Assembly (NCBI GenBank): GCA_900617105.1
Contig: UYFQ01000176.1
Coordinates: forward strand, 1-43,673
Reading direction: 5' to 3'
DNA: 43,673 nucleotides
Origin: Hydrurus foetidus
Taxonomy: Eukaryota
The translations under genes and the position numbers were made by a program. Of the stretch, positions 4,886-41,989 are shown piece after piece; within the stretch, counting starts at the first letter, position 1, and every line of letters begins with the position of its first letter. The notes under the pieces were generated by a model. The model had not been told where the DNA came from and ran no database searches. It saw nothing but the letters and a program-made list of their open reading frames with translations.

Positions 4886-4906
4886 TGCAAGTCGCAACTT
4901 CGAAAG

Positions 4907-9262: not shown

Positions 9263-9894
9263 CCAGTCAAAAAAATGAGTCTTCCCGCCGTGGGCGGAAA
9301 AGGAAACTTCCCCCCAATTTTAAAATATTCCCGCAAAGAAATTGAATATTTCCCCTAATTTTCGAAGTTTGAAAACTTTTAATTTCCCACTAAGAAATTC
9401 AAAATTACTCCTAATTTTCAAAGTTCAGAAACGGACTTTCATGTCAGAATATTTCCTGAAGCTGCCGGCCAGCTGCCAGCTCAGTTCTCTCGATGTCATC
9501 TACATCTTCAAGTACTACTCAGGTAGAGAACACGTCGAAGACACAATATCATCTCTTCTGAATCAGAAATTCGCGTTTCCCGTTGAATTTTATTGTCGTC
9601 TGCTGCAGAGAGCGCATTCAAGTATTCCGAAACCATTCAGTTCAGGAAAAGAAGGTGACGCCTCACTTCATGCATTAGGAATTCACTACTAGAACGCAGA
9701 TTGACTTCAACCACTACCTGAAACTGACTCAACTCCTCGAAATCCCGCAGAAAAACAGCTGGCATTCGTCAGCCGGACCGGCTTTCACGATTGATTGACG
9801 CCGGAAAATTACATTCATAGAAATTTGACATCGTTTTGAAATATCAAAGCACAAAAGCCCGAGACCAATGCCATCTGGCGCGAAGGCATTTACT

Positions 9895-10370
9895 AATATC
9901 AGTTGATCTGTCAACTTCTCCCAAGCTGGAAACGCGTTCCACTTTTCCCGCAAGAGCGTCTACAGCAGCAGCAGCAGCAGCTTACTACCGGCGCAGCACG
10001 TCACCGCCAAGTGGCGTCCATCCTTCCCGGAGTCGATCGCCATCACAACGCCATTGTCTATTAATATGCCATGTCATCATCTCAGTTGATCTGTCAACTT
10101 CTCCCAAGCTGGAAATACATTCAACTCATCCCGCGAGAGCTTCCACAGCAGCAGCGTCCACGGCAGCAGCAGCTTAATACCGACGCAGAACGTCACCATC
10201 CAGTGGCGTCCACCCTTCCTGGAGTCGAACGCCATCAGAAAGTTACCATCAATCATCATATCTTCTCATCGTCTCAGCTGATATGTCAGCTTCCCCCCGG
10301 ATGGAAATGCATGAAACTTATTCCGCGAGGACTTCCACAGATGAAGAAGCGTCCGCGGCAGCAGCGTCTA
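9895..10370. repeat. Three diverged about 185-bp repeats (CAGTTGATCTGTCAACTTCTCCCAAGCTGGAAA core); duplicated at about 16425-16900
   Basis: Core at about 9900, 10083 and 10275; each unit contains a TCYAC(A/G)GCAGCAGC seed. Confidence 0.75.
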
Positions 10371-13300: not shown

Positions 13301-15121
13301 GCATCCACAGCTGCAGCAGCAGCAGAGTCCACGGCAGCAACAGCTATAGCATCCACGGCAGCAGCAGAGTCCACAGCTGCAGCAGCAGCAGTTGCATCCA
13401 CGGCAGCAGCAGCGTCCACGGCAGCAGCAGTAGCATCCACAGTAGCAGCAGCGTCCACAGGCAGCAGCAGTAGCATCCACAGCTCCAGCAGCAGCATCGT
13501 CCACAGCTGCAGCGGCAGCAGAGTTCACGGCAGCAGCAGCAGCATCAGTAGCAGAGTCCACGGCAGCAGCAGTAGCATCCACAGCAGCAGCAGCTGGGGA
13601 GTCCGCGGCAGCAGCAGCTATAGCATCCACGGCAGCAACAGCTACAGCATCAACAGCAGCAGCAATAGCATCCACAGGTGCAGCAGCAGCAGCAGTTGCA
13701 TCCACGGCAGCAGCAGCGTCCACAGCACCAGCAGTAGCATCCACAGTAAGTTGCGTCCACGGCAGCGTCCACGGCGGTAGCATCCACAGCTCCAGCAGTA
13801 GCATCCACAGCTGCAGCGGCAGCAGAGTTCACGGCAGCAGCAGCAGCATCAACAGCTCCAGCAGCAGCATCGTCCACAGCTGCAGCGGCAGCAGAGTCAC
13901 GGCAGCAACAGCTACAGCATCCACGGCAGCAACAGCTTCAGCATCAACAGCAGCAGCAATTGAATCCACTAGCTGCAGCAGCAGCAAACTTTTATCCACT
14001 AAGCAACAGCGTCCGCAGCAAAGTTCAGAAACGGACTTTCAGCAGCATATTTCCTGGCAGCGTCCACGGCAGCTCAGTCCACTCGCTGCAGCAGTAGCAT
14101 CCACAGCTGCAGCGGTAGCAGAGTTCACGGCAGCAGCAGCAATATCATCTCTTCAGAATCCACGGCTCCAGCAGCAGCATCCACAGCTGCAGCAGCAGCA
14201 GAGTCCACGGCAGCAACAGCTATAGCATCAACAGCAGCAGCAATAGCATCCACAGCTGCAGCAGCAGCATCAGTTGCATCCACGGCAGCAACAGCGTCAA
14301 CTCCTAGCATCCCACAGTGGCAGCGGCATCCGCAGCCGCGTCCGGCTGCAGTTGCATCCACAGCTCCAGCAGTAGCATCCACAGCTGCAGCGGCAGCAGA
14401 GTTCACGGCAGCAGCAGCAGCATCGGTAGCGCAGAGTCCAGTAGCATCCACAGCTGCAGCAGCAGCAGATCCACGGCAGCAACAGCTATAGCATCCACGG
14501 CAGCAGCAGCTACAGCATCCACAGCAGCAGCAGTAGCATCCACAGCTGCAGCGGTAGCAGAGTCCACGGCAGCAGCAGTTGCATCAACAGCTCCAGCAGC
14601 AGCATCGTCCACAGCTGCAGCAGCAGCAGCGTCCACGGCAGCAGCAGCTTCCACAGCTGCAGCGGCAGCAGAGTTCACGGCAGCAGGAGTAGCATCAACA
14701 GCTCCAGCAGCAGCATCTTCCACAGCTGCAGCGGCAGCAGAGTTCACGGCAGCAGCAGCAGCATCCACAGCTCCAGCAGCAGCATCCACAGCTGCAGCAG
14801 CAGCAGAGTCCACGGCAGCAACAGCTATAGCATCCACAGCAGCAGCAGAGTCCACAGCTGCAGCAGCAGCAGCAGTTGCATCCACGGCAGCAGCAGCGTC
14901 CACGGCAGCAGCAGTAGCATCCACAGTAGCAGCAGCGTCCACAGCAGCGTCCACGGCAGCAGTAGCATCCACAGCTCCAGCAGTAGCATCCACAGCTGCA
15001 GCGGCAGCAGAGTTCACGGCAGCAGCAGCAGCATCCACAGCTCCAGCAGCAGCATCCACAGCTGCAGCAGCAGCAGAGTCCACGGCAGCAACAGCTACAG
15101 CATCCACGGCAGCAGCAGAGT
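10370..15121. repeat. GCA-based complex minisatellite, array 1, with about 270-bp higher-order period
   Basis: Monomers TCCAC(A/G)(GCA)n of 12-30 bp. The landmark ACAGCTA(T/C)AG recurs at 14821 and 15091, 270 bp apart. Confidence 0.97.
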
Positions 15122-18100
15122 CCATTCGAGGCGGTCAGATGCAGCTTGTCATGGCATCCTCACTGCTATCATTCCTGGCATCGCAAGATTAGCACATCAT
15201 CCTGTATAGATTAGCACATGAAAGATGTTGAATGGGAGTTCAAGCTCATAGGAGAGATAGATCGGCATGTCGTAGAGTGGAAATACAGCCATAAAAAATC
15301 AATTTTTAAACTTAGGGAGGCAAACTTTGACAGTGTGCTTGTAGAGTACTAGACGTTATTTTGCCGAAGTTTGCCTCCCTAAGTTGCACAGGCCAGAAAG
15401 CATGTGGGAAAAAAATGCGCCCAGGCCTCAAGCGAATTCGAGGTAGAGACGCATCACTCAATAAATTTTGTGACTGATCCAACATGATGAAGATTTGATC
15501 AGTCGGAATAAAATCATATCTTCCAGTTGGCTGCAGCGATTATTATGTACTATGTGTCTGCCAGAGCGTAGATATACAGGTGAGATAGCACAATCTGTAA
15601 GTTGTAGTTGGGTTTCGAGTAAGAGAGCTGTGAGATTTTTTTGGCGGGGCCAAGCGGGGAAACCGTCCCCTCTCCTTTTTAATACCCCCTTGCCCTGGCT
15701 TCCCGGGAAAAAACCTCCCGCTCAAAAAAACAAAAAACGAAAAAATTCCTGGGCGTACGGAACCCAATCCCTGGCTTCCCAGGAAAAATTTTTCCAGTCA
15801 AAAAAATGAGTCTTCCCGCCGTGGGCGGAAAAGGAAACTTCCCCCCAATTTTAAAATATTCCCGCAAAGAAATTGAATATTTCCCCTAATTTTCGAAGTT
15901 TGAAAACTTTTAATTTCCCACTAAGAAATTCAAAATTACTCCTAATTTTCAAAGTTCAGAAACGGACTTTCATGTCAGAATATTTCCTGAAGCTGCCGGC
16001 CAGCTGCCAGCTCAGTTCTCTCGATGTCATCTACATCTTCAAGTACTACTCAGGTAGAGAACACGTCGAAGACACAATATCATCTCTTCTGAATCAGAAA
16101 TTCGCGTTTCCCGTTGAATTTTATTGTCGTCTGCTGCAGAGAGCGCATTCAAGTATTCCGAAACCATTCAGTTCAGGAAAAGAAGGTGACGCCTCACTTC
16201 ATGCATTAGGAATTCACTACTAGAACGCAGATTGACTTCAACCACTACCTGAAACTGACTCAACTCCTCGAAATCCCGCAGAAAAACAGCTGGCATTCGT
16301 CAGCCGGACCGGCTTTCACGATTGATTGACGCCGGAAAATTACATTCATAGAAATTTGACATCGTTTTGAAATATCAAAGCACAAAAGCCCGAGACCAAT
16401 GCCATCTGGCGCGAAGGCATTTACTAATATCAGTTGATCTGTCAACTTCTCCCAAGCTGGAAACGCGTTCCACTTTTCCCGCAAGAGCGTCTACAGCAGC
16501 AGCAGCAGCAGCAGCTTACTACCGGCGCAGCACGTCACCGCCGAGTGGCGTCCATCCTTCCCGGAGTCGATCGCCATCACAACGCCATTGTCTATTAATA
16601 TGCCATGTCATCATCTCAGTTGATCTGTCAACTTCTCCCAAGCTGGAAATACATTCAACTCATCCCGCGAGAGCTTCCACAGCAGCAGCGTCCACGGCAG
16701 CAGCAGCTTAATACCGACGCAGAACGTCACCATCCAGTGGCGTCCACCCTTCCTGGAGTCGAACGCCATCAGAAAGTTACCATCAATCATCATATCTTCT
16801 CATCGTCTCAGCTGATATGTCAGCTTCCCCCCGGATGGAAATGCATGAAACTTATTCCGCGAGGACTTCCACAGATGAAGAAGCGTCCGCGGCAGCAGCG
16901 TCTACACGGCAGCAGCAGTAACGTCCGCAGCAGCAGCAGCAGCAGCAGAGTCCACGGCAGCAGCAGTAGCATCCACAGCTGCAGCAGCAGCAGAGTCCAC
17001 GGCAGCAACAGCTACAGCATCCACGGCAGCAGCAGAGTCCACAGCTGCAGCAGCAGCAGCAGTTGCATCCACGGCAGCAGCAGCGTCCACGGCAGCAGCA
17101 GTAGCATCCACAGTAGCAGCAGCGTCCACAGCAGCAGTAGCATCCACAGCTCCAGCAGTAGCATCCACAGCTGCAGCGGCAGCAGCAGCAGAGCAGCAGC
17201 AGCAGCAGTCCACGCAGCAGCAGCAGCATCCACAGCTGCAGCAGCAGCAGAGTCCACGGCAGCAACAGCTATAGCATCCACGGCAGCAGCAGAGTCCACA
17301 GCTGCAGCAGCAGCAGCAGTTGCATCCACGGCAGCAGCAGCGTCCACGGCAGCAGCAGTAGCATCCACAGTAGCAGCAGCGTCCACAGCAGCGTCCACGG
17401 CAGCAGTAGCATCCACAGCTCCAGCAGTAGCATCCACAGCTGCAGCGGCAGCAGAGTTCACGGCAGCAGCAGCAGCATCCACAGCTCCAGCAGCAGCAGC
17501 ATCCACAGCTGCAGCAGCTATAGCATCCACGGCAGCAACAGCTATAGCATCCACGGCAGCAGCAGAGTCCACAGCTGCAGCAGCAGCAGCAGCAGCAGCA
17601 GTTGCATCCACGGCAGCAGCAGCGTCCACGGCAGCAGCAGTAGCATCCACGGCAGCAGCAGCGTCCACGGCAGCAGCAGTAGCATCCACAGTAGCAGCAG
17701 CGTCCACAGCAGCAGTAGCATCCACAGCTGCAGCAGTAGCATCCACAGCTGCAGCGGCAGCAGAGTTCACGGCAGCAGCAGCAGCATCCACAGCTCCAGC
17801 AGCAGCATCCACAGCTGCAGCAGCAGCAGAGTCCACGGCAGCAACAGCTATAGCATCCACGGCAGCAGCAGAGTCCACAGCTGCAGCAGCAGCAGCAGTT
17901 GCATCCACGGCAGCAGCAGCGTCCACGGCAGCAGCAGTAGCATCCACAGTAGCAGCAGCGTCCACAGCAGCGTCCACGGCAGCAGTAGCATCCACAGCTC
18001 CAGCAGTAGCATCCACAGCTGCAGCGGCAGCAGAGTTCACGGCAGCAGCAGCAGCATCAGTAGCAGAGTCCACGGCAGCAGCAGTAGCATCCACAGCTCC

Positions 18101-19900
18101 AGCAGCAGCATCCACAGCTGCAGCAGCAGCAGAGTCCACGGCAGCAACAGCTACAGCATCCACGGCAGCAGCAGAGTCCACAGCTGCAGCAGCAGTTGCA
18201 TCCACGGCAGCAGCAGCATCCACGGCAGCAGCAGTAGCATCCACAGTAGCAGCAGCGTCCACAGCAGCGTCCACGGCAGCAGTAGCATCCACAGCTCCAG
18301 CAGTAGCATCCACAGCTGCAGCGGCAGCAGAGTTCACGGCAGCAGCAGCAGCAGCATCCACAGCTCCAGCAGCAGCATCCACAGCTGCAGCAGCAGCAGA
18401 GTCCACGGCAGCAACAGCTACAGCATCCACGGCAGCAGCAATAGCATCCACAGCTGCAGCAGCAGCAGCAGTTGCATCCACGGCAGCAGCAGCGTCCACG
18501 GCAGCAGCAGTAGCATCCACAGTAGCAGCAGCGTCCACAGCAGCGTCCACGGCAGCAGTAGCATCCACTGCAGCAGTAGCATCCACAGCTGCAGCGGCAG
18601 CAGAGTTCACGGGCAGAGTTCACGGCAGCAGCAGTAGCATCCACAGCTCCAGCAGCAGCATCCACAGCTGCAGCAGCAGCAGAGTCCACGGCAGCAACAG
18701 CTACAGCATCCACGGCAGCAGCAGAGTCCACAGCTGCAGCAGCAGCAGCAGTTGCATCCACGGCAGCAGCAGCATCCACAGCAGCAGCAGCAGCGTCCAC
18801 AGCAGCGTCCACGGCAGCAGCAGGCGTCCACGGCAGCAGTAGTCCACAGCTGCAGCAGTAGCATCCACAGCTGCAGCGGCAGCAGAGTTCACGGCAGCAG
18901 CAGCAGCAGCATCCACAGCTCCAGCAGCAGCATCCACAGCTGCAGCAGCAGCAGAGTCCACGGCAGCAACAGCTATAGCATCCACGGCAGCAGCAGAGTC
19001 CACAGCTGCAGCAGCAGCAGCAGCAGTTGCATCCACGGCAGCAGCAGCAGTCCACGGCAGCAGTAGCATCCACAGTAGCAGCAGCGTCCACAGCAGCGTC
19101 CACGGCAGCAGTAGCATCCACAGCTCCAGCAGTAGCATCCACAGCTGCAGCGGCAGCAGAGTTCACAGCAGCAGCAGCAGCTCACAGCTCCAGCAGCAGC
19201 AGAGTCCGCGGCAGCAGCAGCTATAGCATCCACGGCAGCAACAGCTACAGCATCAGCAGCAGCAGCAGCAGCCAGAGTCCACGGCAGCAACAGCTATAGC
19301 ATCCACGGCAGCAGCAGAGTCCACAGCTGCAGCAGCAGCAGCAGTTGCATCCACGGCAGCAGCAGCGTCCACGGCAGCAGCAGTAGCATCCACAGTAGCA
19401 GCAGTAGCATCCACAGCTGCAGCGGCAGCAGAGTTCACGGCAGCAGCAGCAGCATCCACAGCTCCAGCAGCAGCAGAGTCCACGGCAGCAACAGCTATAG
19501 CATCCACGGCAGCAGCGAGGCCACAGCTGCAGCAGCAGCAGCAGTTGCATCCACGGCAGCAGCAGCGTCCACGGCAGCAGCAGTAGCATCCACAGTAGCA
19601 GCAGCGTCCACAGCAGCAGCAATAGCATCCACGGCAGCAGCAGCATCCACAGCTGCAGCAGTAGCATCCACAGCTGCAGCGGCAGCAGAGTTCACGGCAG
19701 CAGCAGCAGCATCCACAGCTCCAGCAGCAGCATCGTCCACAGCTGCAGCGGCAGCAGCATCCACAGCAGCAGCAGCAGCATCCACAGCTCTAGCAGCAGC
19801 ATCCACAGCTGCAGCGGCAGCAGCAGCGTCCACGGCAGCAGCAGTAGCATCCACAGCTGCAGTAGTAGCAGAGTTCACGGCAGCAGCAATAGCATCCACT

Positions 19901-19931
<31 letters not shown>

Positions 19932-20070
19932 CCACAGCTCCAGCAGCAGCAGCATCCACAGCTCTAGCAGCAGCATCCACAGCTGCAGCGGCAGCAGAGT
20001 TCACGGCAGCAGCAGCAGCATCCACAGCTGCAGCAGCAGCAGCGTTCACGGCAGCAGCAGTAGCATCCAC

Positions 20071-20102
<32 letters not shown>

Positions 20103-20155
20103 CAACAGCAGCAGCATCAACAGCAGCAGCAATAGCATCCACAGCAGCAGCAGCA
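15122..20155. repeat. Tandem duplication unit 2
   Basis: Near-identical copy of 8592-10380 followed by the same satellite. Confidence 0.9.
16905..20155. repeat. GCA-based complex minisatellite, array 2
   Basis: Same monomers and higher-order order as array 1; becomes simpler toward 20150. Confidence 0.97.
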
Positions 20156-20186
20156 ACGTCGACAGCACCCTACCACCACATTAGAC

Positions 20187-20429
20187 CCAGTCGTTGTCAC
20201 GACTCTCCCCGCACTGGAAATATCATTGACGGCGAAGACAACATGTGACTTTTACCGCTGCGCACCGTGAACTCCTGTGGGCTTTTTAGTCGTGAAGCAT
20301 CGATGGAACTCAATCACCCCACCATCTCACTCCACCGACATATTCGACCAAGTCGTTGTCACCACTCTCCCCACACTGGAAACATCACCCACGGCTAAGA
20401 CAACATGTGACACCAACCGCAGCGCACCG
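20187..20429. repeat. Pair of diverged about 80-bp direct repeats
   Basis: AGTCGTTGTCACGACTCTCCCCGCACTGGAAA...AAGACAACATGTGAC...GCGCACCG at about 20187 and 20349. Confidence 0.8.
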
Positions 20430-20560
20430 CAAATTATCTTATTAGATTACATGAAAATTGTTGGGAAATGATTGCACTGGGGACTAGTAGATAGCGGTGA
20501 TGCGAGGCAATAGGTGAGTTGAAACAAAGTTAATTAAAACCCGATCTTCTTTGATGTTGC

Positions 20561-20606
20561 GCTACTGCTGCTACTGCTGCTACTGCTGCTACTGCTGCTA
20601 CTGCTG

Positions 20607-20703
<97 letters not shown>

Positions 20704-20708
20704 TGCTG
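20561..20708. repeat. (CTACTGCTG)n/(CTG)n microsatellite
   Basis: Directly visible. On the minus strand it reads as poly-Ser in DPTEEERRQLQDAVKQISRNTSSNSSS...ATSKKIGF*, possibly the frameshifted C-terminus of the recombinase. Confidence 0.95.
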
Positions 20709-20768
20709 GTGTTCCTGCTGATTTGTTTTACCGCATCCTGTAGCTGTCTTCGTTCCTCCTCAGTCGGA

Positions 20769-22255
20769 TCAGGATACTTCAGTTGTTTCCAGCGCCTTGC
20801 AAGAGCACCGACTGTGTATGCTTTCGCATTCTTCTTTGATAATTAGGAAGTCACCTATAAGCTTAGTCAATATCTTTGCAGTTGCTTTCATATCCATTTC
20901 CCAGGTAGAGTATGACGAATCTTTGGCAGCATCAGGTTGTAGTATCTTCATCGTTTTGAGCTGAGCTTCACTCCCTAATTTCTCAGCTAGCCGAACTACA
21001 TTCTTTGCGTCACCCTGATTGTCACTGCTAGGTTTATGACCGACTGTGATTTGCCAACGACCTGAGGCTAATGTAACAGTATTACCTTTCACTGTTCCTA
21101 GGCTCTTTGCATACCAGTCGTACAAGAACTCCTCCGCCGACTGTGCCCCGAGTGATGTGGAGGAGTACCCTTCGGAAGTCCTCTTAAATAGATCGCTGAA
21201 AGACTTTTCACTGCATCTTGCGGGTGCGACAGGTGAAGACTCTTGCACTCTGCAGTCCTCCTCGACTACTTCGTCATCGAGTTTTCTCTTTTTAGAAGTG
21301 CTGCCATCTTTTCTTGGTGTCTTTTCGCGCATGGTGCTCGAACACATCTTCGCCACTGAGATCTGAATTTCGTTGAGCTGTCCTTGCACAAATTGCAATG
21401 CACTGGACATTGACATCGCGATCTTGACCATCATATAATGTGTATAGAATATCATTAGTATGAGAGTTAGTTTTCTATCAACGACAGTAATATCTTACCT
21501 CCTGTTGCGCTTTTGAGTTCTTCTCCAACATAACAACACGCTCCAATAGAATGGGTATAAGGCTTTCACCGCTGTCAATAGCAGCCGTCATGTTGTCAGC
21601 GGTCCATTTACTCCTGATAAGGGCTCCCCACTCTAACAGTATGTTGATATTGAGACCGCACTCAATGCTCTTCTCACCAACAGCTCGCAACGTCAAATGC
21701 TCTGGATATTTAATTCTCATTTCTGATAGATGCATCAAGAATGTAGCGAACAGACATTTCGCAAGCGGCCACAACTTGCCGCGTGGATGCATCTCGGCGA
21801 CTGAGCAATGGAATAACTTCACGATGAGGTTCTCAATCTGAGTTTCACTTCCACCGATTAGAGGTGTACAGTCAGGTTGGTACACATGTGCTCTCGAATT
21901 CTTCCACCCTGACAACGCCCTACCAGCCCCCGATATCGGACTTAATATACCCCCTATATAACAGAATGCTCGAGAGAATCCCTTTGCCTCCCATCCTCCT
22001 CTGAAGATGGTATTCTCCAGCTTGCATGTTGGATGATCAGTAAGCAAAGTGGCGGCCCCAACTCTGATGTTTAAAAGTAGTTGAGTGTCATTAATAAGAA
22101 ATCAAGTAGCTATCATACGTTGTTTGGGATAACTTTCACTAACCTTAGAGAAGTTCCCTCGTACATGACTGAGTTTGCGGATATATATTCTTCAGAACAA
22201 GATGCAAGCCCCTCTCTCACATACTTCGTCAGCACTGCTGAGGCAGTGTCAACGA
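20769..22255 (-). pseudogene. 5'-truncated Crypton-like tyrosine recombinase; introns 22064-22143 and 21423-21498
   Basis: Splicing AG|GTTAGT...ATCAG|A restores YEGTSLRVGAATLL...IFRGGW...AFCY...AGRALSGW, matching the (H)SxRxGA / RxGW / Y / GRxLxG layout of Crypton recombinases. The N-terminal half is replaced by the 76-bp repeat. Confidence 0.75.
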
Positions 22256-28641: not shown

Positions 28642-28755
28642 GTGGTATTTTGTTTCGGACAATAGTGCAGAATATGGTATGCTACATAAATATATTACTG
28701 TACAGCATATTGCTTAGAGTGGGGTGCCTATTTTTAAGAGCAGCTGTTGGATATA

Positions 28756-30790
28756 ACGTAGTGTCCGGATGGCTCATAACCTTTTGTCCTCATAATCGTT
28801 CTTTTATTATGACACTATCCGGACCTGCACTATACAGTTTCAAAAATAGTACTCGAAGTACATACAAACGGTTACAATTATCTTAAAATAGAAATAAAAC
28901 GCATATCAAAGCTACTCGTCATCGCTGTTGACTTCACCATCCGATTTTGCACCTAACTCATCAGCAATTTCATGATTCTCGACATCTTCATCAATAGCAG
29001 GGTAATCAACAATTTGAGCTTGCTCGAACTGAGCAGTCAACTGCATCTCCTCTGATCTCATCTGCCTAAAGCAGCCGTCTTCAGCGAAACAATTTTTGAT
29101 ACACGATATCATCTCCGGCGTCCTAAGAGCTTCTATGCCTTTCTGTACAAAGCCTGTTATAAATGGCTTCAGTGCACCCATGGTCAACTTTGGGGCGAAA
29201 GTGGTCACTGCGAAACCTTTGGCTTTGTGCACTTGAAATAGACTATCGAGATGATCCCTGTATGCGCTGCGCACCGCTACTTTGAAGGGCTTATTGACGA
29301 CGACGTCACACTCTTGGATAGCATCTGTACAGCAAGCTGGGACGAACAAGGGGTAGATAAAGTTGGCCTTCAAATACGCCAGTACGCTGACATCCTTGTG
29401 CGTGAAGTGTAGATCGTGCTTCAGAATAGTTGCTTGGTTAGCAGGAAGTCCAAGAGTCCGGATCATGTTGTTCTTATACGGAACAATTATTTTCTCGATG
29501 ACCTCGAGATAGGTCTGGACTGACTGCCAATGGCTAGTAGTGTGAGTCCACAGACACTCTTCAGGTCTAATTGATGACGGGTGGCAGCGGGCTGTCTTTC
29601 CGGCGAAGATCATTTGGTACGGTAGTACGTTCCCGGCCTCCGTAACAAATATTGTTGTTGTGATCTGTGCCTTATCATCGCCCATGCCGAGTATCTTCAC
29701 TCGTTTGACGCCCTTCGCGCATCTTGTAGTTCTGGCGCGATTCACGAATTGAACTGCCGTCTCGTCGCCATTGATGACCAGTTCTGGTGGAACGTTGTGT
29801 CTGAATATCAGATCAGCACCGATTCTCATGTAGATTGCTTTTTTAGCTTCGAAGTCCATCGGCAGTTCCCTCATCTTCGTGGTACAGACTCTCAGCACCA
29901 GATTGTGCCTCCTGTAAAATCGCATGGCCCATGAATGTCCGTAGTCGTGAGATCCACCGTTTTCTCTCATCAGCCCCTCCTTGCCAGCCTCAATGAGGCG
30001 AACCTTCAGAAAGCGTCGTAGAATCACGTCGTCTATCGATAATCCACAAGATCTGCTGCTCTCACAATCAGCTAGTAATTTGAGGTCAATCTCAGTGCCG
30101 TATGATGCGACCCGTACTTTTGAAACAACTGTAAGATCTCTCTTACTCTCAAAATCCTTCTTCCATAGGTTCAATCGCTGATATACTGCAGTTTCCGAAA
30201 TACCCAAAAACTCTTCACGGAAGCTTTTCACAGCTTGTCTGTTACCGTAGATCTGCGCTTCACTCGCAATATCTTCCCAATTGGGAGGCCTTTTGTGCCT
30301 TTTCACTCGCTCGGCTGGTGGAGAGATGAGATCTGGGATATCTTCGGCCACAGAATCTATCTGATCCTGGACAATTTCTTCTTCTGTTCTTCTATCATCT
30401 GCTGGACCTCCAGCGATAAAATAATTCCTTCTCTTACGTGCTGCTGATTTTCTTGCTTCTTTCTCATCTGCAATTTCTTTCCTTAAATTCTGTTGCGCCT
30501 CTGCAATTTTTTGTGATTTCTCCTCATCATGAAACCTTTGGACATGCATGTTGGCTCGATGCAATTCTTTTTTTGTGACGGAGCTGAAAAACTTGCGCAT
30601 ATCCATTGCCCGCTGGGCACTCATTTTGAGCGGAGGGAAGGAACCAACGGAAAATCTCTCTGACTGATGTCCTCATAATCGGATGCCCTCATAATTCTAG
30701 AAATAAAATAATGAGATCATCCGGACCAGCACTCACCACTTTTGACGAAGATTATGAGGTATCCGGTTATGAGCCATCCGGACACTACGT
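28756..30790 (-). mobile_element. Intact pogo-like (Tc1/mariner superfamily) DNA transposon inserted in the copia 5' LTR
   Basis: Perfect 26-bp TIRs ACGTAGTGTCCGGATGGCTCATAACC (28756-28781; 30765-30790) and TA TSD. The empty site TGTTGGATATAGCAT is visible in the 3' LTR. Confidence 0.96.
28912..30624 (-). CDS. pogo-like DDE_1 transposase, 570 aa, uninterrupted
   Basis: CENP-B-like HTH (HSWAMRFYRRHNL), NGDETA, KHDLHFTH and VPACCTDAIQECDVVVNKPFK; 35 residues between the 2nd and 3rd Asp (DD35D). Confidence 0.93.
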   Translation of the reverse strand: MSAQRAMDMRKFFSSVTKKELHRANMHVQRFHDEEKSQKIAEAQQNLRKEIADEKEARKSAARKRRNYFIAGGPADDRRTEEEIVQDQIDSVAEDIPDLISPPAERVKRHKRPPNWEDIASEAQIYGNRQAVKSFREEFLGISETAVYQRLNLWKKDFESKRDLTVVSKVRVASYGTEIDLKLLADCESSRSCGLSIDDVILRRFLKVRLIEAGKEGLMRENGGSHDYGHSWAMRFYRRHNLVLRVCTTKMRELPMDFEAKKAIYMRIGADLIFRHNVPPELVINGDETAVQFVNRARTTRCAKGVKRVKILGMGDDKAQITTTIFVTEAGNVLPYQMIFAGKTARCHPSSIRPEECLWTHTTSHWQSVQTYLEVIEKIIVPYKNNMIRTLGLPANQATILKHDLHFTHKDVSVLAYLKANFIYPLFVPACCTDAIQECDVVVNKPFKVAVRSAYRDHLDSLFQVHKAKGFAVTTFAPKLTMGALKPFITGFVQKGIEALRTPEMISCIKNCFAEDGCFRQMRSEEMQLTAQFEQAQIVDYPAIDEDVENHEIADELGAKSDGEVNSDDE

Positions 30791-30792
30791 TA

Positions 30793-31176
30793 GCATAGCT
30801 ATCCCTATGGGGACAATCTCTTTGGGGACAATCCCTTTGGGGTAATATCATTCAAGCCCAAGCGGAGGAGCGAGGGTAGCACTTTTGGAACCGAGAACCA
30901 TCACTCATGTGATGTACTGGAAGTTGCAACTGATGATGACTATGAACAGTCAACTGTAGCTAGTTTAGCTAGACATGAACTGCTTTGTATTGACACCCTG
31001 AGCACTTCTAATTAAAAGAGACTATATGGCTGTGTGTCATTATACCTACACTAGAGTGAGCTGTTGGAGCAACTTTGGTCGACTAGCTGAAAGCAAAGTG
31101 TATTCTGAACGAATCACTGCTATCAACCAGGTGCTTTGATTGGATCCAGGATCCAGAAGACAGTTTTATTCCAAGA
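30793..31176 (+). repeat. Main part of the copia 5' LTR (includes a 15-bp tandem repeat TCCCTTTGGGGACAA x about 3 near 30802-30846)
   Basis: Matches 39614-39997. Confidence 0.97.
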
Positions 31177-31187
31177 TAATTAGAAGT
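31177..31187 (+). promoter_or_regulatory. Non-tRNA primer-binding-site position TAATTAGAAGT, complementary to LTR 31004-31014
   Basis: Abuts the LTR end, has no TGG, and is the exact reverse complement of ACTTCTAATTA in the LTR. The function is inferred. Confidence 0.7.
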
Positions 31188-31202
31188 CATTAGCTGCTCA
31201 GA

Positions 31203-34200
31203 ATGAGCCAGCGAGGCGAGAAGGGCGCTGTCCAACCGAGACCAGAGAAGGGTGGAAAGTTTGAAAAATCCACGATCGGAGATGGCGTGAAGCCAGAGAA
31301 TCTTCCTGAGATAGCCCACAATGGCTGGAAAGAATGGGACGACAACATGCAGATTCTGAAAGAGTACATGCGAGTCAACTTTCAAGACCTTGAGTCAATC
31401 TGTCCCGACCCCATGATGCTGTCGATAAAACCTGCATATGAGGTTTACGAATTTGCAGAACCTGACTATGAAAAATTGGAGGCTCTGAACGACACTACTG
31501 ATCCAAAGGGATTTCGAGCAAAGCTAATGTTGGCAGACTTGAATAGTGAGAGAGCAGTCATCACGAAGATGAAAAAGAAGCAAATGGAGGACCGACGATC
31601 AGCATATCGACTGATCCGATCGATGTGTTCACCATCGCTAAATGCGATTTTGATAGTGAATGCCAAATTCATCGCTGTCAAATTCGAGGATCCACTCGAA
31701 CTGCTTGCAGTTATCAAGTCAGTTGTTGCATCCAGATGTGATGGAAATCAGGAATTGGAGCGGTCCGAGGCCCTACGGGACTGGTATACACTCACCATGA
31801 GTACGGGCGAAGAGATCGTAACGTACGGACGGCGCGCAGTCAAGCTTTTCGACCGACTTGCTGCGACAGGAGTACCAACAGCACAAATTCCAGATGCAAA
31901 ACAACAAGCCATGAGGTTAATTGACGGTCTAAGTAGCACCGTGCAGGTCTACCACGACTACAAAAACTACCTCAGCAACTCCCTCGAGTGCACCGCTATC
32001 GACATCTATCCGAAGACTTTGGTGGAGGCCATCAATGGAGCAACCCGATTCCATCGAGGGGCGAAGGGTAGCGCATTGCAATCAGCGATAGCGACTCCCC
32101 ACACGGCACTGGCGGCGAAGAACCCTGGCAAACAGGGTGGTCCCCCCAAAGGGAGAAAAACCACCTGCCAAAGACAAGGCCAAAAAGATCGATGCTGACA
32201 AGATTAAGGAGCCGAAAGTGAAATTTGCTAAGGAATCAAAGGAAGGCAAGTTCAGTGGAACCTGCTACTACTGCAAGAAAGTCGGTCACCGTGCTAGTGA
32301 GTGCAGAAAGAAGGCAGCGGATGAGGCCGATTCAGCACCAAAAACTTCATACTCGGCCATTAGACAAACCGACGAAGATGACACCAACGACGAAGACAAT
32401 GGGCATACAGCTTTTGGCCAAATGTGGGACCAAGAGGTTAACGAGAATCAGTATGGCGACAGGCACTGTAGTATGTGCCTCACCACCACCTCACCGGTGG
32501 AATTCGCAACCCTCGGTCCTCGGACTGATTTTTCCGCAAACCAACACATCAACCAACAAAGTACCTCGGAGGCCATCTTCGACACAGGAGCTACTGGAAC
32601 CATCATTACATGTGCAGATGTTCTGACTGACATTGCAACATGCACTCCAACTGTATTCAAAGGCTTGCATGGTTCCCTTACTGTAACTAAAGCAGGACTT
32701 CTTCGAGACATTGGTATTGTTCATTTTGATCCGCGAGCTGGACTTTCCATCATCTCGGCATCGGATTGCCTGTTGCAAGGACACAACTGGGAGTTTCGCC
32801 AAGGTTCTACAATAGATCAAGATGCATTTCTGCTTCACACTGATCAGAATACATACAAATTTCAACACCGTGGAGGGCTGTATGTCAGCGATTTGGCAAC
32901 GCCTCCAGAGCCGCGATACTCTGACGCCGCAGAGCGCAGAAATGGATATGCACACCCCGCAGTGGTGAAAACACCATCTAGCAACTTATTCTACTCTACT
33001 AAGCTAGAAACAACGGCAGGAAACGAAGCCAACTTCACAAAACGCGAAGTTCAAAGAAGCGTCGATGCACGACGTTTGCAAGCGAGTTTAGAATTCCCAC
33101 CAGATCAGAAATTCATTTCTGCTTTGAGGGCTGGGACATTTCTCAACTGCGACATCTTACCTGAAGACATCGCACGTGCCACAGCAATTTGGGGAGCAAG
33201 CACGGCTTCGCTCAAAGGACGCACTATTAGGCTGAGGCCTATGCCACCACCACAACTACCTACAACGGCCCGCAACAGTGACGATCAACACATGCATTGT
33301 GATGTCATGTTCATAAATCGACACCCATTTCTAGTTTCAATTACTCATCCACTGGGTATCGTTTCGGTGGCCTACGTTGAGAATCTCACAACGCCGGTGC
33401 TCCGACAGAGCATCAAGCGTATGTTCGGAACCATCGGGTCCCGACGCATTTCCATCGTGAAATTTACCAGCGATAATGAAAGAGGCATTGCGGCACTTGT
33501 CAACGACATGAACGCCATGGGCGTCGAGGTCATTACAGTTGGTCCAGGGCAACACGATCACATTATTGAGCAGGCACCTGAAGGAAACCATCCGTTGTAC
33601 CATCTTCAGTCTACCGTACCTCCTACCAGATATACTGATGCCTCACCTCGTCATGAGCTCAGCAAGGAAGCTTCTACTGTTCCCCTCCTCAACGAGAACA
33701 GATAGGATCTCCCCCTTCGAAGCATTCTTTGGAAGGAAGGCCGACACAAAAAAAGATATCGGACCGCCTTTCGGATCATACTGCCAAGTCACCGCAAGGG
33801 TGCTTAGCAACAACATGGATCCACGAACCATCGGATACCTATACCTGGAACCAAAGATGAATGGGACAGGTACTCATTCCTTCATGCGCATCGACACTAG
33901 GAGCGTCATATCGGCCAACCACTATGTGGTGCTACCGATACCACCACTTGTCACCACCACTGTAAATGGGTGGGCATCGAAGAATAAAATCCACATATCG
34001 CAAGAACCGATATTCACTTTCCATGATAGAGACATCACTGGAGATATCGACGATGATGTGGTAATAATGGATACACCTTCAGAATCGGAACCCACGATCC
34101 AATTTCGACATCCACCTCCTATACAACCGGTGTTCCGGGATGAAACCGACACGCCTGATACCGTGATAGAACCTCAAATTACACAAGACCAATTGGAGAT

Positions 34201-35131
34201 TCGGGGTGAAATGGAATCAGCTGTCGATGAAAATAATAGTATTTCCACTACTGACGAAGTATCTGGGCCAGAAACTAATTTTGAATCGGCATCGGAGGAG
34301 CAACCAGAGGCACTACCTACCTCCGTGCGTACGTACGTGCCCACTGCACCAATTGAAATGCGTGAGAAATCGACGAGAATCCGAAAGCCACCAGACAGAC
34401 TCAACTTAGTAGCTCAAAAACTGCCTATTTCAACGTGGAAAGAAGGAATTAGGGGTGAGTGGTCATTAATGACAGTTACCCGGGCACTGAAACTTTTTCC
34501 GGACAAGGCTACCGCAGCCATCGAGTCAGAGGTCAAATCACTACTTGCCAAGGGGACATTTTCGGGTGTGCACATGGAACAGCTATCACCTACTCAGAAG
34601 CAGAAGATACTGCGTTCTAACATGTATGTTGTGGAGAAATACCTCCCAACACTGAATTCGAATGGTGATCGCCAGATCGACAAGGTCAAGGCACGTTTCT
34701 GTGTGGATGGGCGTGCTCAAGTTAGAGAAGACTACGCTGCAGATGAAGTTGAGTCACCTACAGCGACTATAGCTTCCATCTTTACAGTTGCACAAATTGC
34801 TGCTGTGGAAAACCGTTTCATTATGGTCGGGGACGTTGGGTCCGCGTACCTCAACGCCGATATGCCTAAGGAAAAACCGGATAAAATCCTCCATATGTTC
34901 ATTGATAAGAATGTGGCCGACGCAATCATCAAACAAGACAAATCATTTGAGTGCTACCGAAGACACAATGGAGGGCTAGTGGTGAGACTGGACAAAGCAC
35001 TTTACAGGTGTATCGAGTCCGCCAAACTATGGTATAACGAAATAGCCGGAACACTTGGCCGTAATGGGTTTACGGCCAACCCGCGCGATATTTGCGTCTT
35101 TTATAAGGACGTCAAAGGGAACCAATTTACT
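31203..35131 (+). pseudogene. gag-pol: Copia gag-pol, 5' part (Gag, CCHC, protease, integrase, RT N-terminus); frameshifts near 32150 and 33570
   Basis: CYYCKKVGHRASEC, AIFDTGAT, HCDVMFI...FTSDNE...HIIE, KVKARFCVDGRAQ, GDVGSAYLNA and RLDKALYRCIESAKLWY. Confidence 0.95.
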
Positions 35132-35375
35132 CTCCTTATCGCACCATTTTTACGAGAACGAGTTTCTTATTTTCTTGTAAACCTAACTCGACTTTTTTTC
35201 CCGGAGTTTCACTCCTTATCGCGGAAGCATTACGAGAACGATTTTATTTTGTGTTCTAGCACTCCTTACCGTGCGAGTTCAAAATACGAGTTTTGGATTC
35301 ACAAATTCCGTGCAGCCGCATGCATCCTTTGAACATATGTTATCAACATAATCAAATCATATCAAGACCTTCACG

Positions 35376-36780
35376 ATGCACTTTAAAAAAATTGTTCTCC
35401 GGGCCATCATTCATAGGCACTCTATGATGGTGAAGCACCGCGCTGAACTTGCGGTTCAAATGAAGGAAATGGTTGTACCTTCCATTGCAGCGGTCAAAAG
35501 ACGTAAAGAATTTAAGCAAAGGAAATTCGAGAAAAGGCCAAAATACGAGCAGTCAACTTGGGGGATGATGTTGGCGCATCCACGCTTCAAGGACCCTCAT
35601 GATAGGAAGGGAGGTCAACTATTTAGGAGACGTTTTAGAGTACCATTTCCGGTGTACTTGGAAATACTTCGTATGACACGTGAAAGCAACTGGTTTTCTG
35701 AAGGGCGAGACGCCATTGGAATTCTCTCAGCACCTCTGGAGCTCAAAGTTCTCAGTGTGCTGCGTGTCCTTGGACGAGGATGTTGCTTTGACGGAGTAGA
35801 GGAGCTCTGTTTCATTAGCGCAGAGGTGCTGAGACAATTCTTTCACAAATTCTGCGCTTTGTTCGCAGCAAAGTACTTCCCTATCTAATGCTCTCCACCT
35901 ACAACTGCGGAAGAAATAAAGCATACAACAGGAGTCTATGCTAGGATGGGTCTGCCTGGGTGCATCGGCAGCACCGATTGCGTGCACATCAGATGGGAAC
36001 GTTGTCCAGCAGGGAGTCGATCATTACACAAAGGGAAAGAGGGATACCCTACTTTGCCGTATGAAGTTACAGTTGATCATAGCAAGCGTATCATTGGAGT
36101 CACACAAGGGCATCCAGGTGCAAGGAACGACAAGACCATTGTGAAGTTTGATGGTTTCGTGTCTGCTATCCATGACGGTACTCTCTATCAGAATGAGACG
36201 TTTGAACTTCTTGATGAAGAAGGTGTTCCAACTGAGCAGAAGGGACTCTACCTTATTGTTGATGGTGGCTACCATAAGTGGCGGTGCTTACAATGCCCGA
36301 TGAAACATACGTCTAAGATGAAGGAGGCCTTGTGGAGTAAGTGGGTAGAGTCCGTCCGCAAAGATGTGGAGTGTTGCTTTGGTATATTGAAGGGTCGGTT
36401 CAGGTGCCTCAAACTTCCTATATTTTATCAGAACAAATCAGTGATTGATAACATGTTTTTCACCTGTTGCATACTACATAATATACTCCTGAATGTTGAT
36501 GGGTTTGATGCACGATGGGAAGAAAATGTGAATTGGGAGGACAAGCAGGATATCATGCTGATGAAGATATAACTATTTTTAAGAAGCACTGGAGAAGAGC
36601 TAGAGCGTTAGTAGGATCAACAGATTATAGTTTACAAGGAATAAATGCAGTGAATAGACGATACGAAATGTTTCATGATGGCGGTGAAGAAGTTCAAGAC
36701 TCACATTACGCTTAAAGGAAGAAACTGGTCGATCACTACTATAGAAAGTATGCTGCACGTCAAATTGAATGGTTAACTTA
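35376..36780 (+). pseudogene. Harbinger DDE transposase, frameshifted near 35885 and 36540
   Basis: FRRRFRVP, PGCIGSTDCVHIRW, PGARNDKTI, YLIVDGGY and ESVRKDVECCFGILKGRFRCLK. Confidence 0.92.
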
Positions 36781-36790
36781 ATTATAATTT

Positions 36791-38200
36791 CTACTTCTTG
36801 GTCAATTTCCTTTTCCTTGAAACTCCTCTAGTACGGGTCATCGCAGTAAACAAGCATTCACCTTCCGGGGATGATGGTGTGAGCGATGCTGCAGCAGCAT
36901 TAGCAGATGCAGAAGAAGATGATGAAGCAGATGATGATGAAGATGATGTAGCAGGTTTCACTCCATGTTTCCTTGGCGACACCCGAGTGGGCACTTCTAG
37001 AGGAAGAGAGGCTGTGGTGGATAGAGATCGTTCGGTGTCACTGTCAGTAGGTGCTTGCTGATCATCTCCACTGTCCTCATGATTGCTGTAATCTCCACCG
37101 CACTCTTGACGGTCCACGATCTCATCAAGATCACCCTCAAATTCCGAAGGCGCATCATCCCCCCAAAGCTCGGTCTGTTGTGGTGGACTCAAAAGGGTAT
37201 TATTCTTCGATGCACTCTCACTGCAGGTGGCAGAAGATGGAATCTTTGGAAGCTCAACAACTTCCTCATCGGAGTCTTCAACAATGATCTCAACTGGAGG
37301 AGGATTGCGTATGAGCGCCTTGATCTCCGATTTGATCACAACTCTCTCGTCTTCGTCATCCTCAATTTCCAGCAGGTACTTCAGCTCAGCGAGCCTTTTC
37401 TCCCGGGCATCTAAGAAATTGCTTACTTTGAGCACCGCATTCAGTTCCCGCTAGACCTTTCTGTCCTTCTTGATATTTGTTGGCTGCTCTTTAGATATTA
37501 CCTTTCGGATATCATCCTCTTTGACTCTTTGATCATGGCGTTGATCCTTCCTGCTCTTCGCTTTTTTCACGTTGGTGTCGTCCGTTGTCACGCCAGGGCC
37601 ATTTGATTTCCTACCGATATGCATTCAAGACTTCAGAAGATGATAGAAATTCGTTTCGTTTATCTGATAGACTCACGCGGCGTAGAAGATGCCGTCGGGT
37701 TCTTCTGAAGCTGCGCCAAAGATTAAGAAGACATTCCACTCCTTCGGAGCTCAATTTGGAGGGCAGCTTTTCGTGGATTTAGGATTCTTCGCTAGCTCCG
37801 CTCTCAAGAAAACATCTTTCCTCGTCTTCTCTATGATCTCAATCTTTGACTTGCCTGACGGCAGTTGTCCACCAGGAAGGTTTTTCATGTAAAGCTCTGT
37901 AAAGTCATTGACTATTATCCTCTTGATTTCACCAAACTTTCTCCAAATTGATTCCCCGTCGTGATAGTCGTCAGGTTTGCAGACTTTGACAATGAAATTC
38001 TTTGATCGGAGGAGGATAGCTCGATCAATACCCTGTAACGCCGGCGAGAGATAGGAATTTGCGCAAGCCAATTTGAATTCTTCGAAGATTTCTGTCTCAA
38101 TTTGCTCTTTGCACAATTCGCGTTCTGCGGATACAGAAAGACCAGCCCTGGCGATGCAGACATATTGAAAACTTTTGATGTCGTGGACTTGAAATATCAT
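36791..38200 (-). pseudogene. Harbinger accessory (second) gene, fragmented
   Basis: Inside the TIRs and convergent with the transposase. Charged, low-complexity ORF pieces at 37751-38200 and 36791-37435. A Myb/SANT-like role is inferred from position only. Confidence 0.6.
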
Positions 38201-38427
38201 GATTGTTGAATAGAAGTGCCTCTGATAGCACCGTGAGAGAACTCGTCTTGAAGAAACTCGTCACTAGATCGAGACGAGAATGGACCAGCTTTGCCGGGCC
38301 AGATACTCGTAAATGTCATGATCGAGTTTTATTCTCGTATTATTTGCGCGATATGGAGTCAAAAGTCGTATTTCTCGGCACGAGTTCCAGGAAAACTCGT
38401 GTTTCAGGTGCGCGATAAGGAGTGGCC

Positions 38428-39438
38428 TAAGGACGTCAAAGGGAACCAATTTACTATCCTAGTCTACGTAGACGACTTAATGATGACGTTTGTGGACAAG
38501 AAATCAGTTTTGGATTTTGAGCAAACTTTGCTGAAAACGTACGGACAATTCCGTACCACTCAAGAGCGTGTCGTACCGTACCTAGGTTGCACGTGGGATT
38601 CACTGAGAAAGGATTTGTAAAGGTCACACAGATCGGAATGATTCAAGATCTGATCTCATCAAGGGAAAAAAGCCATGCCGAACGAGGTATAAACCTCATT
38701 GGGAATCTATCGTCACCCGGTGCCCCACACCTATTTGAGCGGACCTTGGACTGCAAATTCCTGAATGAGAAAGACGCTAAAACCTTCCATACAGACGTCG
38801 CTACAGCGCTATACCTGGGGAACCGAACGCGTCCGGATATCGTATTAGTGTTTGGTGAACTTTGCAAACGTGTAAAGGCACCAACAACAGAAGACGACAA
38901 GAAACTTGATAGGCTCATATGCTATCTGAGGGCTACTAGAGACAAGCCCCTACGACTCGGTTGCACATTACCACTGACAGTTACAGTATCAATTGATGCC
39001 GCATTTGCTAACCGAGATATGATGAAGTCAACCTCAGGAATGTGTGTCACATTGGGGGTGGGATATTTTATTACGAGTTCCAAGGTCCAGAGGCTCAATT
39101 CCAAGTCAAGTACGGAGTCCGAGATCATTGCAGTTTCCGACGGCATGAACATTCCACTATGGCTTGCTGGGTTTATTGCGTACCAAGGACATGGGAAACA
39201 CCCAGTGAGGCTGGAACAAGACAACCAATCATGCATTGCGTTGCTGAACAAAGGTCGGTCTACCGCAGAGACCACCCGGTTTATTGAGGTACAGAAATTC
39301 TGGATCTCAGACTACATCCGTATCGGTGCCGTAAACATTATCTACGTGCCCACCGAGGATATGACATCCGATTACTACACCAAGCCACTACAAGGAACAC
39401 TTTTTCCCAAGATGGTGAAGGAAATTATGGGAAATTAA
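38428..39438 (+). pseudogene. pol: Copia pol, 3' part (RT YVDD and RNase H); frameshift near 38597
   Basis: ILVYVDDLMM, YLG, RTRPDI, SIDAAFA, SKSSTESE, EQDNQS and DYYTKPLQG. Confidence 0.95.
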
Positions 39439-39602
39439 GTAGTATACACTATTGACTTACAGTTGAGCTATTTTTAAAAAATTTATTAGCAACAATACAT
39501 GTTATGATCACTATAGCTTACAGCAGATACAAATACGATTTATGTTTCATTCCCATGAAAAAATACGAATATGCCGCCTGAATGCTTATGACATTAGGGG
39601 TG

Positions 39603-39997
39603 TGTTGGATATAGCATAGCTATCCCTATGGGGACAATCTCTTTGGGGACAATCCCTTTGGGGTAATATCATTCAAGCCCAAGCGGAGGAGCGAGGGTAG
39701 CACTTTTGGAACCGAGAACCATCACTCATGTGATGTACTGGAAGTTGCAACTGATGATGACTGTGAACAGTCAACTGTAGCTAGTTTAGCTAGACATGAA
39801 CTGCTTTGTATTGACACCCTGAGCACTTCTAATTAAAAGAGACTATATGGCTGTGTGTCATTATACCTACACTAGAGTGAGCTGTTGGAGCAACTTTGGT
39901 CGACTAGCTGAAAGCAAAGTGTGTTCTAAACGAATCACTGCTATCAACCAGGTGCTCTGATTGGATCTAGGATCCACAAGATAGTTTTATTCCAAGA
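39603..39997 (+). repeat. Copia 3' LTR, 395 bp, TGTTGGA...TCCAAGA
   Basis: Direct repeat of the 5' LTR, preceded by the PPT and followed by the TSD. Confidence 0.97.
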
Positions 39998-41989
39998 GCA
40001 GCTCTCCAAGATTAATTCCAGCACACGGAGTATCAGGCCCCACCGGTATCTGAGTGCATATTTGAACTCGCCTTGATCTCTAGAAAATTCACATATACTT
40101 TACTGATCTATCCGCTAACTGGAAAGGCATAATAATTGGGGGGTCTAAAACACCGTTCAAATCGCGCTCTTAATTAGGATTATGTTACCCAAAATGACGC
40201 TTATAAGCCTACTTTCGATATGGTTTGCAGTTTGTTGCCTAGTGCTTTTTATTGCATTTTAAGTGCTGATATATTAGACCTTAGATCGTAAATCTAAGAG
40301 GATAAGAGCCGCACGCATTGAACGGTAGGAGCGCTTGTTCCCGGCCAAATTGCCCCATTGGTTGCGTGTACAGTCTACTGAAAGGATAGCTAGTTGCTCT
40401 GTTGACTAAAATGGGTCTAGAGTCTGATTGTAAAAAGTGCACGAAGAAGAAGCATAGCAGTTTGAATCGAACGGAGCTAGGAGACTACCTCCAATCTAAA
40501 ATCAAAAATACAGAAAAAATTGTCGCAGTAACGGTTGGTTCCGCGCTTGATATGGCTGTTGTCGTGCCAGAGACTCCTGCGGCAATCGGCTTGGAACTGC
40601 CAGCAGTCGTGATTGACTTCGTTGCAACCACATATGAAGAACTAAGTAATCATCTATATAGTAAGTACAGTAGTAATCAAACTGAAATAGTGTCTTGCTT
40701 ACCCTCGATAGAAGACAGGAACTTGTTGCAAACGTTCTACCTCGATGCATCAGAAAATGATAAGTTTCTAATAGATGCAGTTTGGCACAAGCACCGTCAC
40801 TTCAAAATTTGAAAACTTTTTTCTTATTAAATGAGTATTTTTGCAAATTTGCTATTTTTTTAGGGCTCGTAATCGATCTCAATGGCAATGTTGTCAGAGT
40901 GCAACTGTATGTGTGCAATAGACTCGCTAAATCATCAATCAAAAGCCATCTTAAAAGAAAAAATTCTGGAAAAAAATTGCTCTTAAATCGGATTTAGGAA
41001 ACAATAGGCACCCCACTCTACTGCTAGGGCTGGTGGTCGACCCCAAAAATGGAAGTCGACCCGACCAAGGTCTTAGATCGTTCCTTGTGGGTAAACAGAA
41101 TACAAAATACAAAACGGGGTAAATTCGTTTTTTTGTATTTTGTATTCTGTCACTCAACGTCTGCTGTGGTACGGGCTGAAGACACCAAGAAAGGTAAAAT
41201 ACGGTTTCCAGAAAAAAGATCTTAAATTTCGAATTCAAGTTCGAATTCAAAATTAATCTGAAACGAAGGTCAGCCATTGACATCCATCGACATCCATCGA
41301 ACATCTACAATCTCGATCATCTCTACTACACTACTCTCGCAACAGAAGACAAACCGCAAGCAGCTGCCAGCCAGAAAGATTTCAAGGGCAACTACCTCTT
41401 TCTGCAGCATTTTTTTCAAGTGGGAGCATTCTACCAACCAGCAGAAATCTCATCAAATCTACTTGATGAGGTTGCCGTCGCGACGGCTCAACACATCTGA
41501 CATCCCGGGGCACCACTATTATCGCGACAAGGGCCAACAATCTCCGACCTGATGTTCTTAATGATTACCGCTCTCCCGATAATTTTAGATAGCTTCTTCC
41601 ACTCTCAAACATTCCGATTTCAGATCAACTTCAGCAACCACAAGAGATTGATTTGCCCGCAGTGTGGATGATGAATTAGCATTGCGATTCTCATCGCATT
41701 AATTACTACTAGAAGCTGGCTGCCCACGTCTTATCGCCCATCCATCCTCATGCCCGAGCCGATCTCTCCGGGACCTCCTCACCAGACTGCTGTTAAATAT
41801 GCGGCGGTCATGGTCACAGAGGTCTCATCCTCTGCTCCTACAGCAACTACACACGGCTAAAAGAAGCTATTCTTATTGGCAAAGCCACTACTGGAAGCTG
41901 ACTGCCCACTTCATGCGACCACAGACTTCGGTACCGATCATTCGCTTCCATCAGCGTCAAATAATTTGACCCTTCGGTACAGTATAGTA

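Follow-up and report, generated by a model that had tools for sequence, protein, structure and literature searches.

Likely self-priming of reverse transcription in a Ty1/copia retrotransposon family represented by a defective copy in Hydrurus foetidus

A Ty1/copia family represented by a defective element in the genome of Hydrurus foetidus likely primes reverse transcription in the manner of Tf1, using the 5' terminus of the element's transcript in place of a host tRNA. The element lies within a 43,673-nt stretch (contig UYFQ01000176.1, positions 1 to 43,673), referred to throughout as the window. Its primer-binding site (PBS) is complementary to a segment inside its own long terminal repeat (LTR), the complementarity starts at the first base past the LTR (offset 0), and relatives retain the complementarity with different letters; the helix that the two segments would form is predicted by RNA folding. 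Self-priming was proposed in an initial annotation of the window and stands as the best reading, with covariation in its favor, although three parts of the proposal (its novelty, a second block of pairing, and the expectation that no tRNA fragment matches the site) fail or are weakened in the analysis described below.

Structure of the interrupted element

The element, at 28745-39997, is a defective Ty1/copia LTR retrotransposon, interrupted and frame-broken, and it is bounded by a 5-bp target-site duplication, GCAGC (28740-28744 on the left and 39998-40002 on the right; these and all features below are on the forward strand unless noted). The 5' LTR's end had been placed at 31176, and this position agrees both with the end of the 3' LTR (39997, followed by GCAGC) and with the point at which contigs from sequencing runs diverge. 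The limits first given for the LTR need correction at the other side, where the true start is 28745, a 2-kb transposon having separated the first 11 nt of the LTR from the rest. Those 11 nt (TGTTGGATATA, 28745-28755) are identical to 39603-39613, and the remainder of the 5' LTR occupies 30791-31176. The intervening Tc1/pogo-like DNA transposon (28756-30790, reverse strand) has terminal inverted repeats, sits at a TA within the LTR, and contains an open reading frame (28912-30672) with a weak match to DDE_1, below the cut-off. The complete 3' LTR (39603-39997, 395 bp) is preceded by a purine-rich tract, AGGGGTG (39596-39602), and differs from the 5' LTR at 7 of 386 nt. Both LTRs terminate in ...CAAGA (TCCAAGA, at 31170-31176 and 39991-39997) rather than ...CAACA. 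The same is true of one close relative, L022, and another, L055, ends in CA. Elements whose LTRs have the form TG...GA, rather than TG...CA, make up a subfamily in which the integrase end is non-canonical.

Gag, protease, an integrase-like stretch and the first part of reverse transcriptase (RT) are found in 31203-35136, with the zinc knuckle of gag at 32263 and the protease motif DTGA at 32581. The D..D..E stretch at 33295-33580 I take to be integrase-like on the basis of its motifs; no Pfam match for integrase was found in the window element or in the relatives searched. RT is interrupted by a PIF/Harbinger-type transposon (35137-38427, with Plant_tran and DDE_Tnp_4 at 35889-36572) and resumes, followed by RNase H, at 38428-39438, with YVDD at 38465 and the D-E-D-D residues of RNase H present. 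The ends of the Harbinger-type insertion carry a 33-nt duplication of RT sequence (35104-35136 and 38428-38460), which looks like template-switch repair after insertion. The left inverted repeat of the insertion is without its outer bases.

The assignment to copia draws on the RT (PF07727 RVT_2, E = 3.5e-11 in the window, matched also in relatives P0002, P0083, L002, and L012) and on the gene order gag-PR-IN-RT-RH, in which the integrase is placed by its D-D-E motifs and no integrase-sized open reading frame follows RNase H. Comparison with PDB gave only weak zinc-knuckle matches. The element is judged defective because of the Harbinger-type insertion in RT and three frame breaks (near 32100-32200, 33575, and 38599) with respect to the single 1663-aa open reading frame of P0083. 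Since the copy is interrupted and frame-broken, any mechanism considered here is a property of the family and not of this insertion.

Elsewhere, the window contains an approximately 6.5-kb tandem duplication with long CAGCAG-rich repeat arrays (8592-15121 and 15122-21650, both approximate), a 1.7-kb element at 3342-5053 with 147-nt inverted repeats that are 99% complementary, probably a DNA transposon, and, on the reverse strand, a 595-aa open reading frame (323-2110) with only weak CCCH zinc-finger matches below the cut-off.

The primer-binding site and its complement in the LTR

The PBS, TAATTAGAAGT (31177-31187), adjoins the LTR, and its exact complement, ACTTCTAATTA, is found where it had been reported, at 31004-31014 and, in the 3' LTR, at 39825-39835. 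Also as reported, no TGG follows the LTR, whose end lies 26 nt from the ATG at 31203. The complementary 11-mer has no further occurrence in the window (0.01 expected by chance), and of 5000 LTRs resampled by a first-order Markov model, 1 contained a complement of 11 nt. The site has the combination by which Tf1-type elements are recognized: it adjoins the LTR, complements a stretch of it, and has no match to a tRNA 3' end. The window itself contains no tRNA or Rfam family that could be found.

Contigs of the same family provide a limited view of constraint on these segments. Run X7 contains 323 family contigs, and variants reaching a level of 3% are absent from 30999-31034 and from 31177-31186 in this set, whereas positions 31189-31191 vary. 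About one variant would be expected in the 11-nt stretch from the rate over the LTR (an estimate), and so the lack of variation there is weak support. In run X9, a loose contig end before 31014 comes from a related LTR with another motif at the position of the self-primer.

The initial annotation proposed a second block of pairing, CTGAGC with GCTCAG. The block is present in this copy (p about 0.014), but none of the 11 relatives described below has more than four complementary bases there, and in two runs roughly half of the depth summed over family contigs has another base at position 30998. CTGAGC lies upstream of the predicted RNA start; in an RNA that contained both halves the two would pair (P = 0.81-0.97 with a longer 5' end). 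With the block absent from all 11 relatives and 30998 variable, I rejected it as a conserved element and treat the pairing as incidental. At 31188 and its counterparts, opposite the position that precedes the predicted +1, 6 of 11 elements have a C; it is a matter of speculation that this C could face the cap G.

Relatives were sought in several collections. The family occurs in metagenomes from freshwater, sediment, biofilm, and air and in one run labeled as a single organism; contigs of four of these runs were aligned to the element. In the single-organism run, 555 contigs aligned over a stretch of 808 bases, a number suggestive of many divergent copies (the summed depth is not a copy number). 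Alignment of RNase H gave 22 loci in prokaryote metagenome-assembled genomes (MAGs) and confirmed 23 of 47 pattern matches. The contigs with copia polyproteins in several prokaryote MAGs (L002-L023, G001-G010) are evidently misbinned eukaryotic contigs, and further searches within those MAGs added more relatives. Alignment of gag gave none in viral or genome contigs and, in metagenome contigs, one weak locus without an LTR; alignment of RNase H gave no relatives in viral contigs. The 101 matches of a PPT-LTR pattern in viral contigs were taken as noise, and a short pattern used on MAGs was set aside as too unspecific.

A relative was considered testable if LTR start, LTR end, and sequence beyond were all present, and 11 are. 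Those left out, having no 5' LTR-PBS junction, include L001, L006-L011, L013, L015, L016, L018, and L021, as well as L023, L033, L068, and L225. The comparison with distant copia is confined to L234 and L237, the others having no definable junction. Seven LTR ends were obtained by enumerating candidates blindly and four were set by eye (L002/3, L012, L014, L019), that of L002/3 being fixed by the divergence of its two copies.

All 11 testable relatives, including two with an uncertain end, have an LTR complement at offset 0. The match is perfect over 16 nt in L002/3, 15 nt in L004 and L019, 14 nt in L012, L014, and L020, 11 nt in L022 and L055, and 9 nt in L005 and L017; L085 matches at 13 of 14 positions, only 4 of them in a perfect run. 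The null means for the relatives are 3.6-5.1 nt. An alternative LTR end agrees better with the LTR start in L005 and L014, and with it the match falls to 6 nt in the former and, as judged by eye, to none in the latter, leaving 9 firm cases. Neither of the two distant copia is matched (4 nt in L234, 3 nt in L237). These two share a PBS starting AGTTACG that has no TGG, no LTR complement, and at most 6 nt of match to the 40 tRNAs tested. A quick maximum-likelihood tree of 39 rows, midpoint-rooted and composed only of unnamed rows (L020, L022, L055, and L085 are absent from it), puts all 8 self-matching RT/RNase H rows in a single 28-row clade with SH-aLRT support of 100 and both non-matching rows outside it. 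Owing to the small number of labeled rows, a shuffle of labels on the tree does not reach significance (55 of 500).

Whether pairing is kept as letters change can be seen best in the two closest relatives, L022 (45% in gag and 76% over 25 residues at the end of RNase H, with respect to the window) and L055 (gag E = 7e-100), whose LTRs are alignable with the window LTR and have the motif at the same place, 170-171 nt from the LTR end. The primer and PBS are ACTTCTAATTA and TAATTAGAAGT in the window, ACTTCTTATTA and TAATAAGAAGT in L022, and (A)CTTCTTTAATA and TATTAAAGAAG in L055, the last with one pair more. Two of the six gap-free pairs over these three elements have changed on both sides and none is broken; with so few sequences, this count does not reach significance by itself (64 of 500 shuffles). 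Every slid register of the primer and PBS pairs is worse than the true one. Without being prompted, RNAalifold recovers the helix, in which 30 of 30 cells are paired, along with two U5 hairpins with double changes; one of these, at 31097-31118, has its double changes in the two closest relatives. The mean predicted probability of the helix is 0.94 in the window, for an RNA from 31004, and 0.75-0.99 over the 12 elements. The central duplex is predicted in the three close elements, and predictions of flanking duplexes like those of the Tf1 "pretzel" differ among them. The test of covariation that had been proposed in the initial annotation thus favors self-priming: letters change in the relatives and pairing is kept.

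Proposed mechanism and competing explanations

The start of the RNA is predicted from the position of the motif. In 11 of the 12 elements the match begins at, or one base past, the A of a CA (1.3 expected, the elements being partly dependent), and in the window the predicted self-primer begins at such an A, the predicted +1. A pyrimidine-A step marks initiator sites. A hexamer resembling a poly(A) signal, ATTAAA (31011-31016), overlaps the self-primer and is kept in L022 and L055; over the three close elements, ATTAAA or AATAAA overlaps the 3' end of the motif, an arrangement that fits a short R. TATATG at 31023 was considered as a TATA box and rejected, since the relatives have TACATA and AATATA, and no conserved TATA box was seen about 30 nt upstream of the motif. 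As for contigs from RNA runs, X20 had none, and the one from X19, a 260-nt contig made up of U3, flank, and some letters resembling adapter, is uninformative as to the start.

If self-priming operates as in Tf1, the RNA would start at A31004 and its first 11 nt would fold onto 31177-31187, closing a loop of 162 nt that comprises R and U5. By analogy with Tf1, the RNase H of the element would cut the RNA behind nt 11, and the 11-mer, its 3' end now free, would be extended across U5, minus-strand synthesis beginning from the edge of the LTR. The minus strand would then transfer by means of the short R and recopy the 11-mer from the 3' LTR. Minus-strand strong-stop DNA made in this way would carry a leader, ACUUCUAAUUA.

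A tRNA half was said in the initial annotation to be a potential objection to self-priming, and the objection has some substance for this copy. Positions 31179-31189, overlapping the PBS, are the complement of nt 29/30-39 of a non-host tRNA-Arg(UCU), over 10-11 nt. Priming by the host tRNA-Arg(UCU) 5' half, cut after nt 39 and bound to this rival site, either alone or as a back-up, seems to me improbable, even though several observations speak for it. A tRNA-Arg(TCT) gene in L195 makes 10 contiguous pairs with 31179-31188, ending at nt 39; the best of 87 Arg-TCT genes, which are non-host and were fetched by a pattern built to match, makes 11 pairs; and the PBSs of L012 and L004 make 8 and 7 pairs to the Arg-TCT half. 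Half-tRNA priming is moreover established in copia, and the halves are cut near nt 39-40, where the match to Arg ends, according to the portions consulted of PMC6317226. Against this, the closest relatives, L022 and L055, have 2 and 4 pairs from the 3' end of the half and keep the self-match, and 9 of the 11 relatives have at most 5 pairs to Arg-TCT halves. The register for the tRNA is also 2 nt off the end of the LTR, whereas self-matches are at offset 0 in 12 of 12 elements, and one contig of run X9 is changed at 31187, a position that would fall mid-way along the tRNA duplex but at the distal end of the self duplex. Among 40 other tRNAs with 21 anticodons, no relative matches over more than 8 nt. 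With the tRNA match lost in relatives, it is therefore the self-match that is the conserved feature, and the match to Arg(UCU) may be chance, a back-up, or an ancestral trace.

The last of these can be extended to a scenario in which self-priming arose independently in a broad Branch-1 copia clade on the CoDi/GalEa side, the primer derives from a copied tRNA-Arg(UCU) half, and the present family is an intermediate with two primers. I would give it only an outside chance, on the grounds that the window family matches its own 5' end and a tRNA half, 11 nt each, and that two other members retain 7-8 nt of the same anticodon loop. Such a family, were this true, would show how tRNA priming becomes self-priming.

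It is about as doubtful that the helix is functional with the motif internal to the RNA, owing to a start upstream or to use of the copy in the 3' LTR. An internal cut would then be needed, or the helix would have another role (dimerization, packaging, or control of translation) and a different primer would be used. The start position is predicted only, and a TATA box is not conserved about 30 nt upstream; a longer 5' end would allow CTGAGC/GCTCAG to lengthen the helix in this copy, with the probabilities given above; and fungal GalEa elements have a conserved hairpin at the position of the PBS whose role is not known (PMC5445492, in the part consulted). But in 12 of 12 elements the helix stops precisely at the boundary of the LTR, the point at which a primer has to end, its 5' end is at CA in 11 of 12, and the block that would extend it is absent in all 11 relatives. 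Finally, it is exceedingly improbable that the match arose by chance from AT-rich, partly palindromic sequence (the 11-mer is 82% AT and contains the palindrome TAATTA), and a chance origin is refuted for practical purposes by the 1 in 5000 resamplings and by the fact that relatives show the match again in unrelated letters, among them L019 (15 nt), which is richer in GC, with the match absent in both distant copia.

Comparison with known systems

The initial annotation took self-priming not to be known as established for Ty1/copia, and this overstates the novelty: self-priming of Houba, Osr-1, and the TAR group is already in print as a prediction (PMC6317226, as seen in part). What seems unpublished is the design in a separate, CoDi/GalEa-like clade. 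A search of mostly open-access literature, including portions of PMC2806351 and PMC2774666, turned up no published description of CoDi-like or stramenopile copia as self-priming, the text consulted of PMC7472051 has nothing on self-priming in such copia, and the text searched of PMC2806351 and PMC2774666 yielded no description of a PBS for CoDi. With a second copia clade, probably unrelated, that has this design and natural covariation, priming without tRNA would become a strategy that evolved more than once, and it would follow that a copia RNase H is able to cut an RNA-RNA duplex. The natural series of primers, 9-16 nt with varied letters, constitutes a ready-made set of tests. Annotation tools that demand a tRNA site would miss elements of this kind.

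The closest functional parallel is Tf1, in which RNase H releases the first 11 bases, which then prime (PMC7175516) and two duplexes flank the central PBS duplex (PMC10085805, both papers in the parts consulted). Tf1 and Tf2 of Schizosaccharomyces pombe and the Tf1/sushi group, including plant Tcn1, likewise have an 11-nt PBS by the LTR that is complementary to the LTR and likewise have no site for a tRNA 3' end. Tf1 belongs to Ty3/gypsy, whereas the present element has the gene order of copia and an RVT_2-type RT; primers range over 9-16 nt across the clade, flanking duplexes are not consistently predicted, and self-priming is here a prediction from sequence. Self-priming was reportedly suggested in the case of Houba and Osr-1 in an earlier study. 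In the literature surveyed, as far as it was seen, experimental proof exists only for the gypsy element Tf1, and for copia (plant TAR) there is prediction only.

The plant TAR copia (Houba, Osr-1, Fourf) have a predicted self-primer in 89% of 203 elements, defined by a complement of at least 10 bp located 0-5 nt past the LTR (PMC6317226, in part), and the window element has such a complement. The clade described here is probably unrelated to TAR. TAR elements are from plants, and the 47 matches of the RNase H search made here come without exception from JGI or ENA, NCBI contributing none; together with motifs of the GalEa type, the search points indirectly away from TAR. The traits shared with GalEa are a DTG(C/A) protease, YVDD, TRPDI at the start of RNase H, a 5-bp target-site duplication, an LTR starting in TGT, and, in the intact relative P0083, a single large open reading frame (PMC5445492, in the part consulted). 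By DTGA, YVDD, and TRPDI, the clade may be placed as CoDi/GalEa-like, the tree having unnamed rows only; CoDi, from diatoms, and GalEa form one branch, Branch 1 of Ty1/copia (PMC2774666, in part). Metazoan GalEa have a tRNA-Met site and fungal GalEa a hairpin (CHS), with no LTR complement found, according to the text seen of PMC5445492.

The half-tRNA-primed copia (Osser, Bryco, Bianca, FunCo1) likewise have a PBS without TGG, one that matches an anticodon arm. The known cases in the literature surveyed use Met, Ile, or Lys halves, whereas the half matched here is that of Arg-UCU, over 10-11 nt, and the closest relatives have lost this match but retain the self-match.
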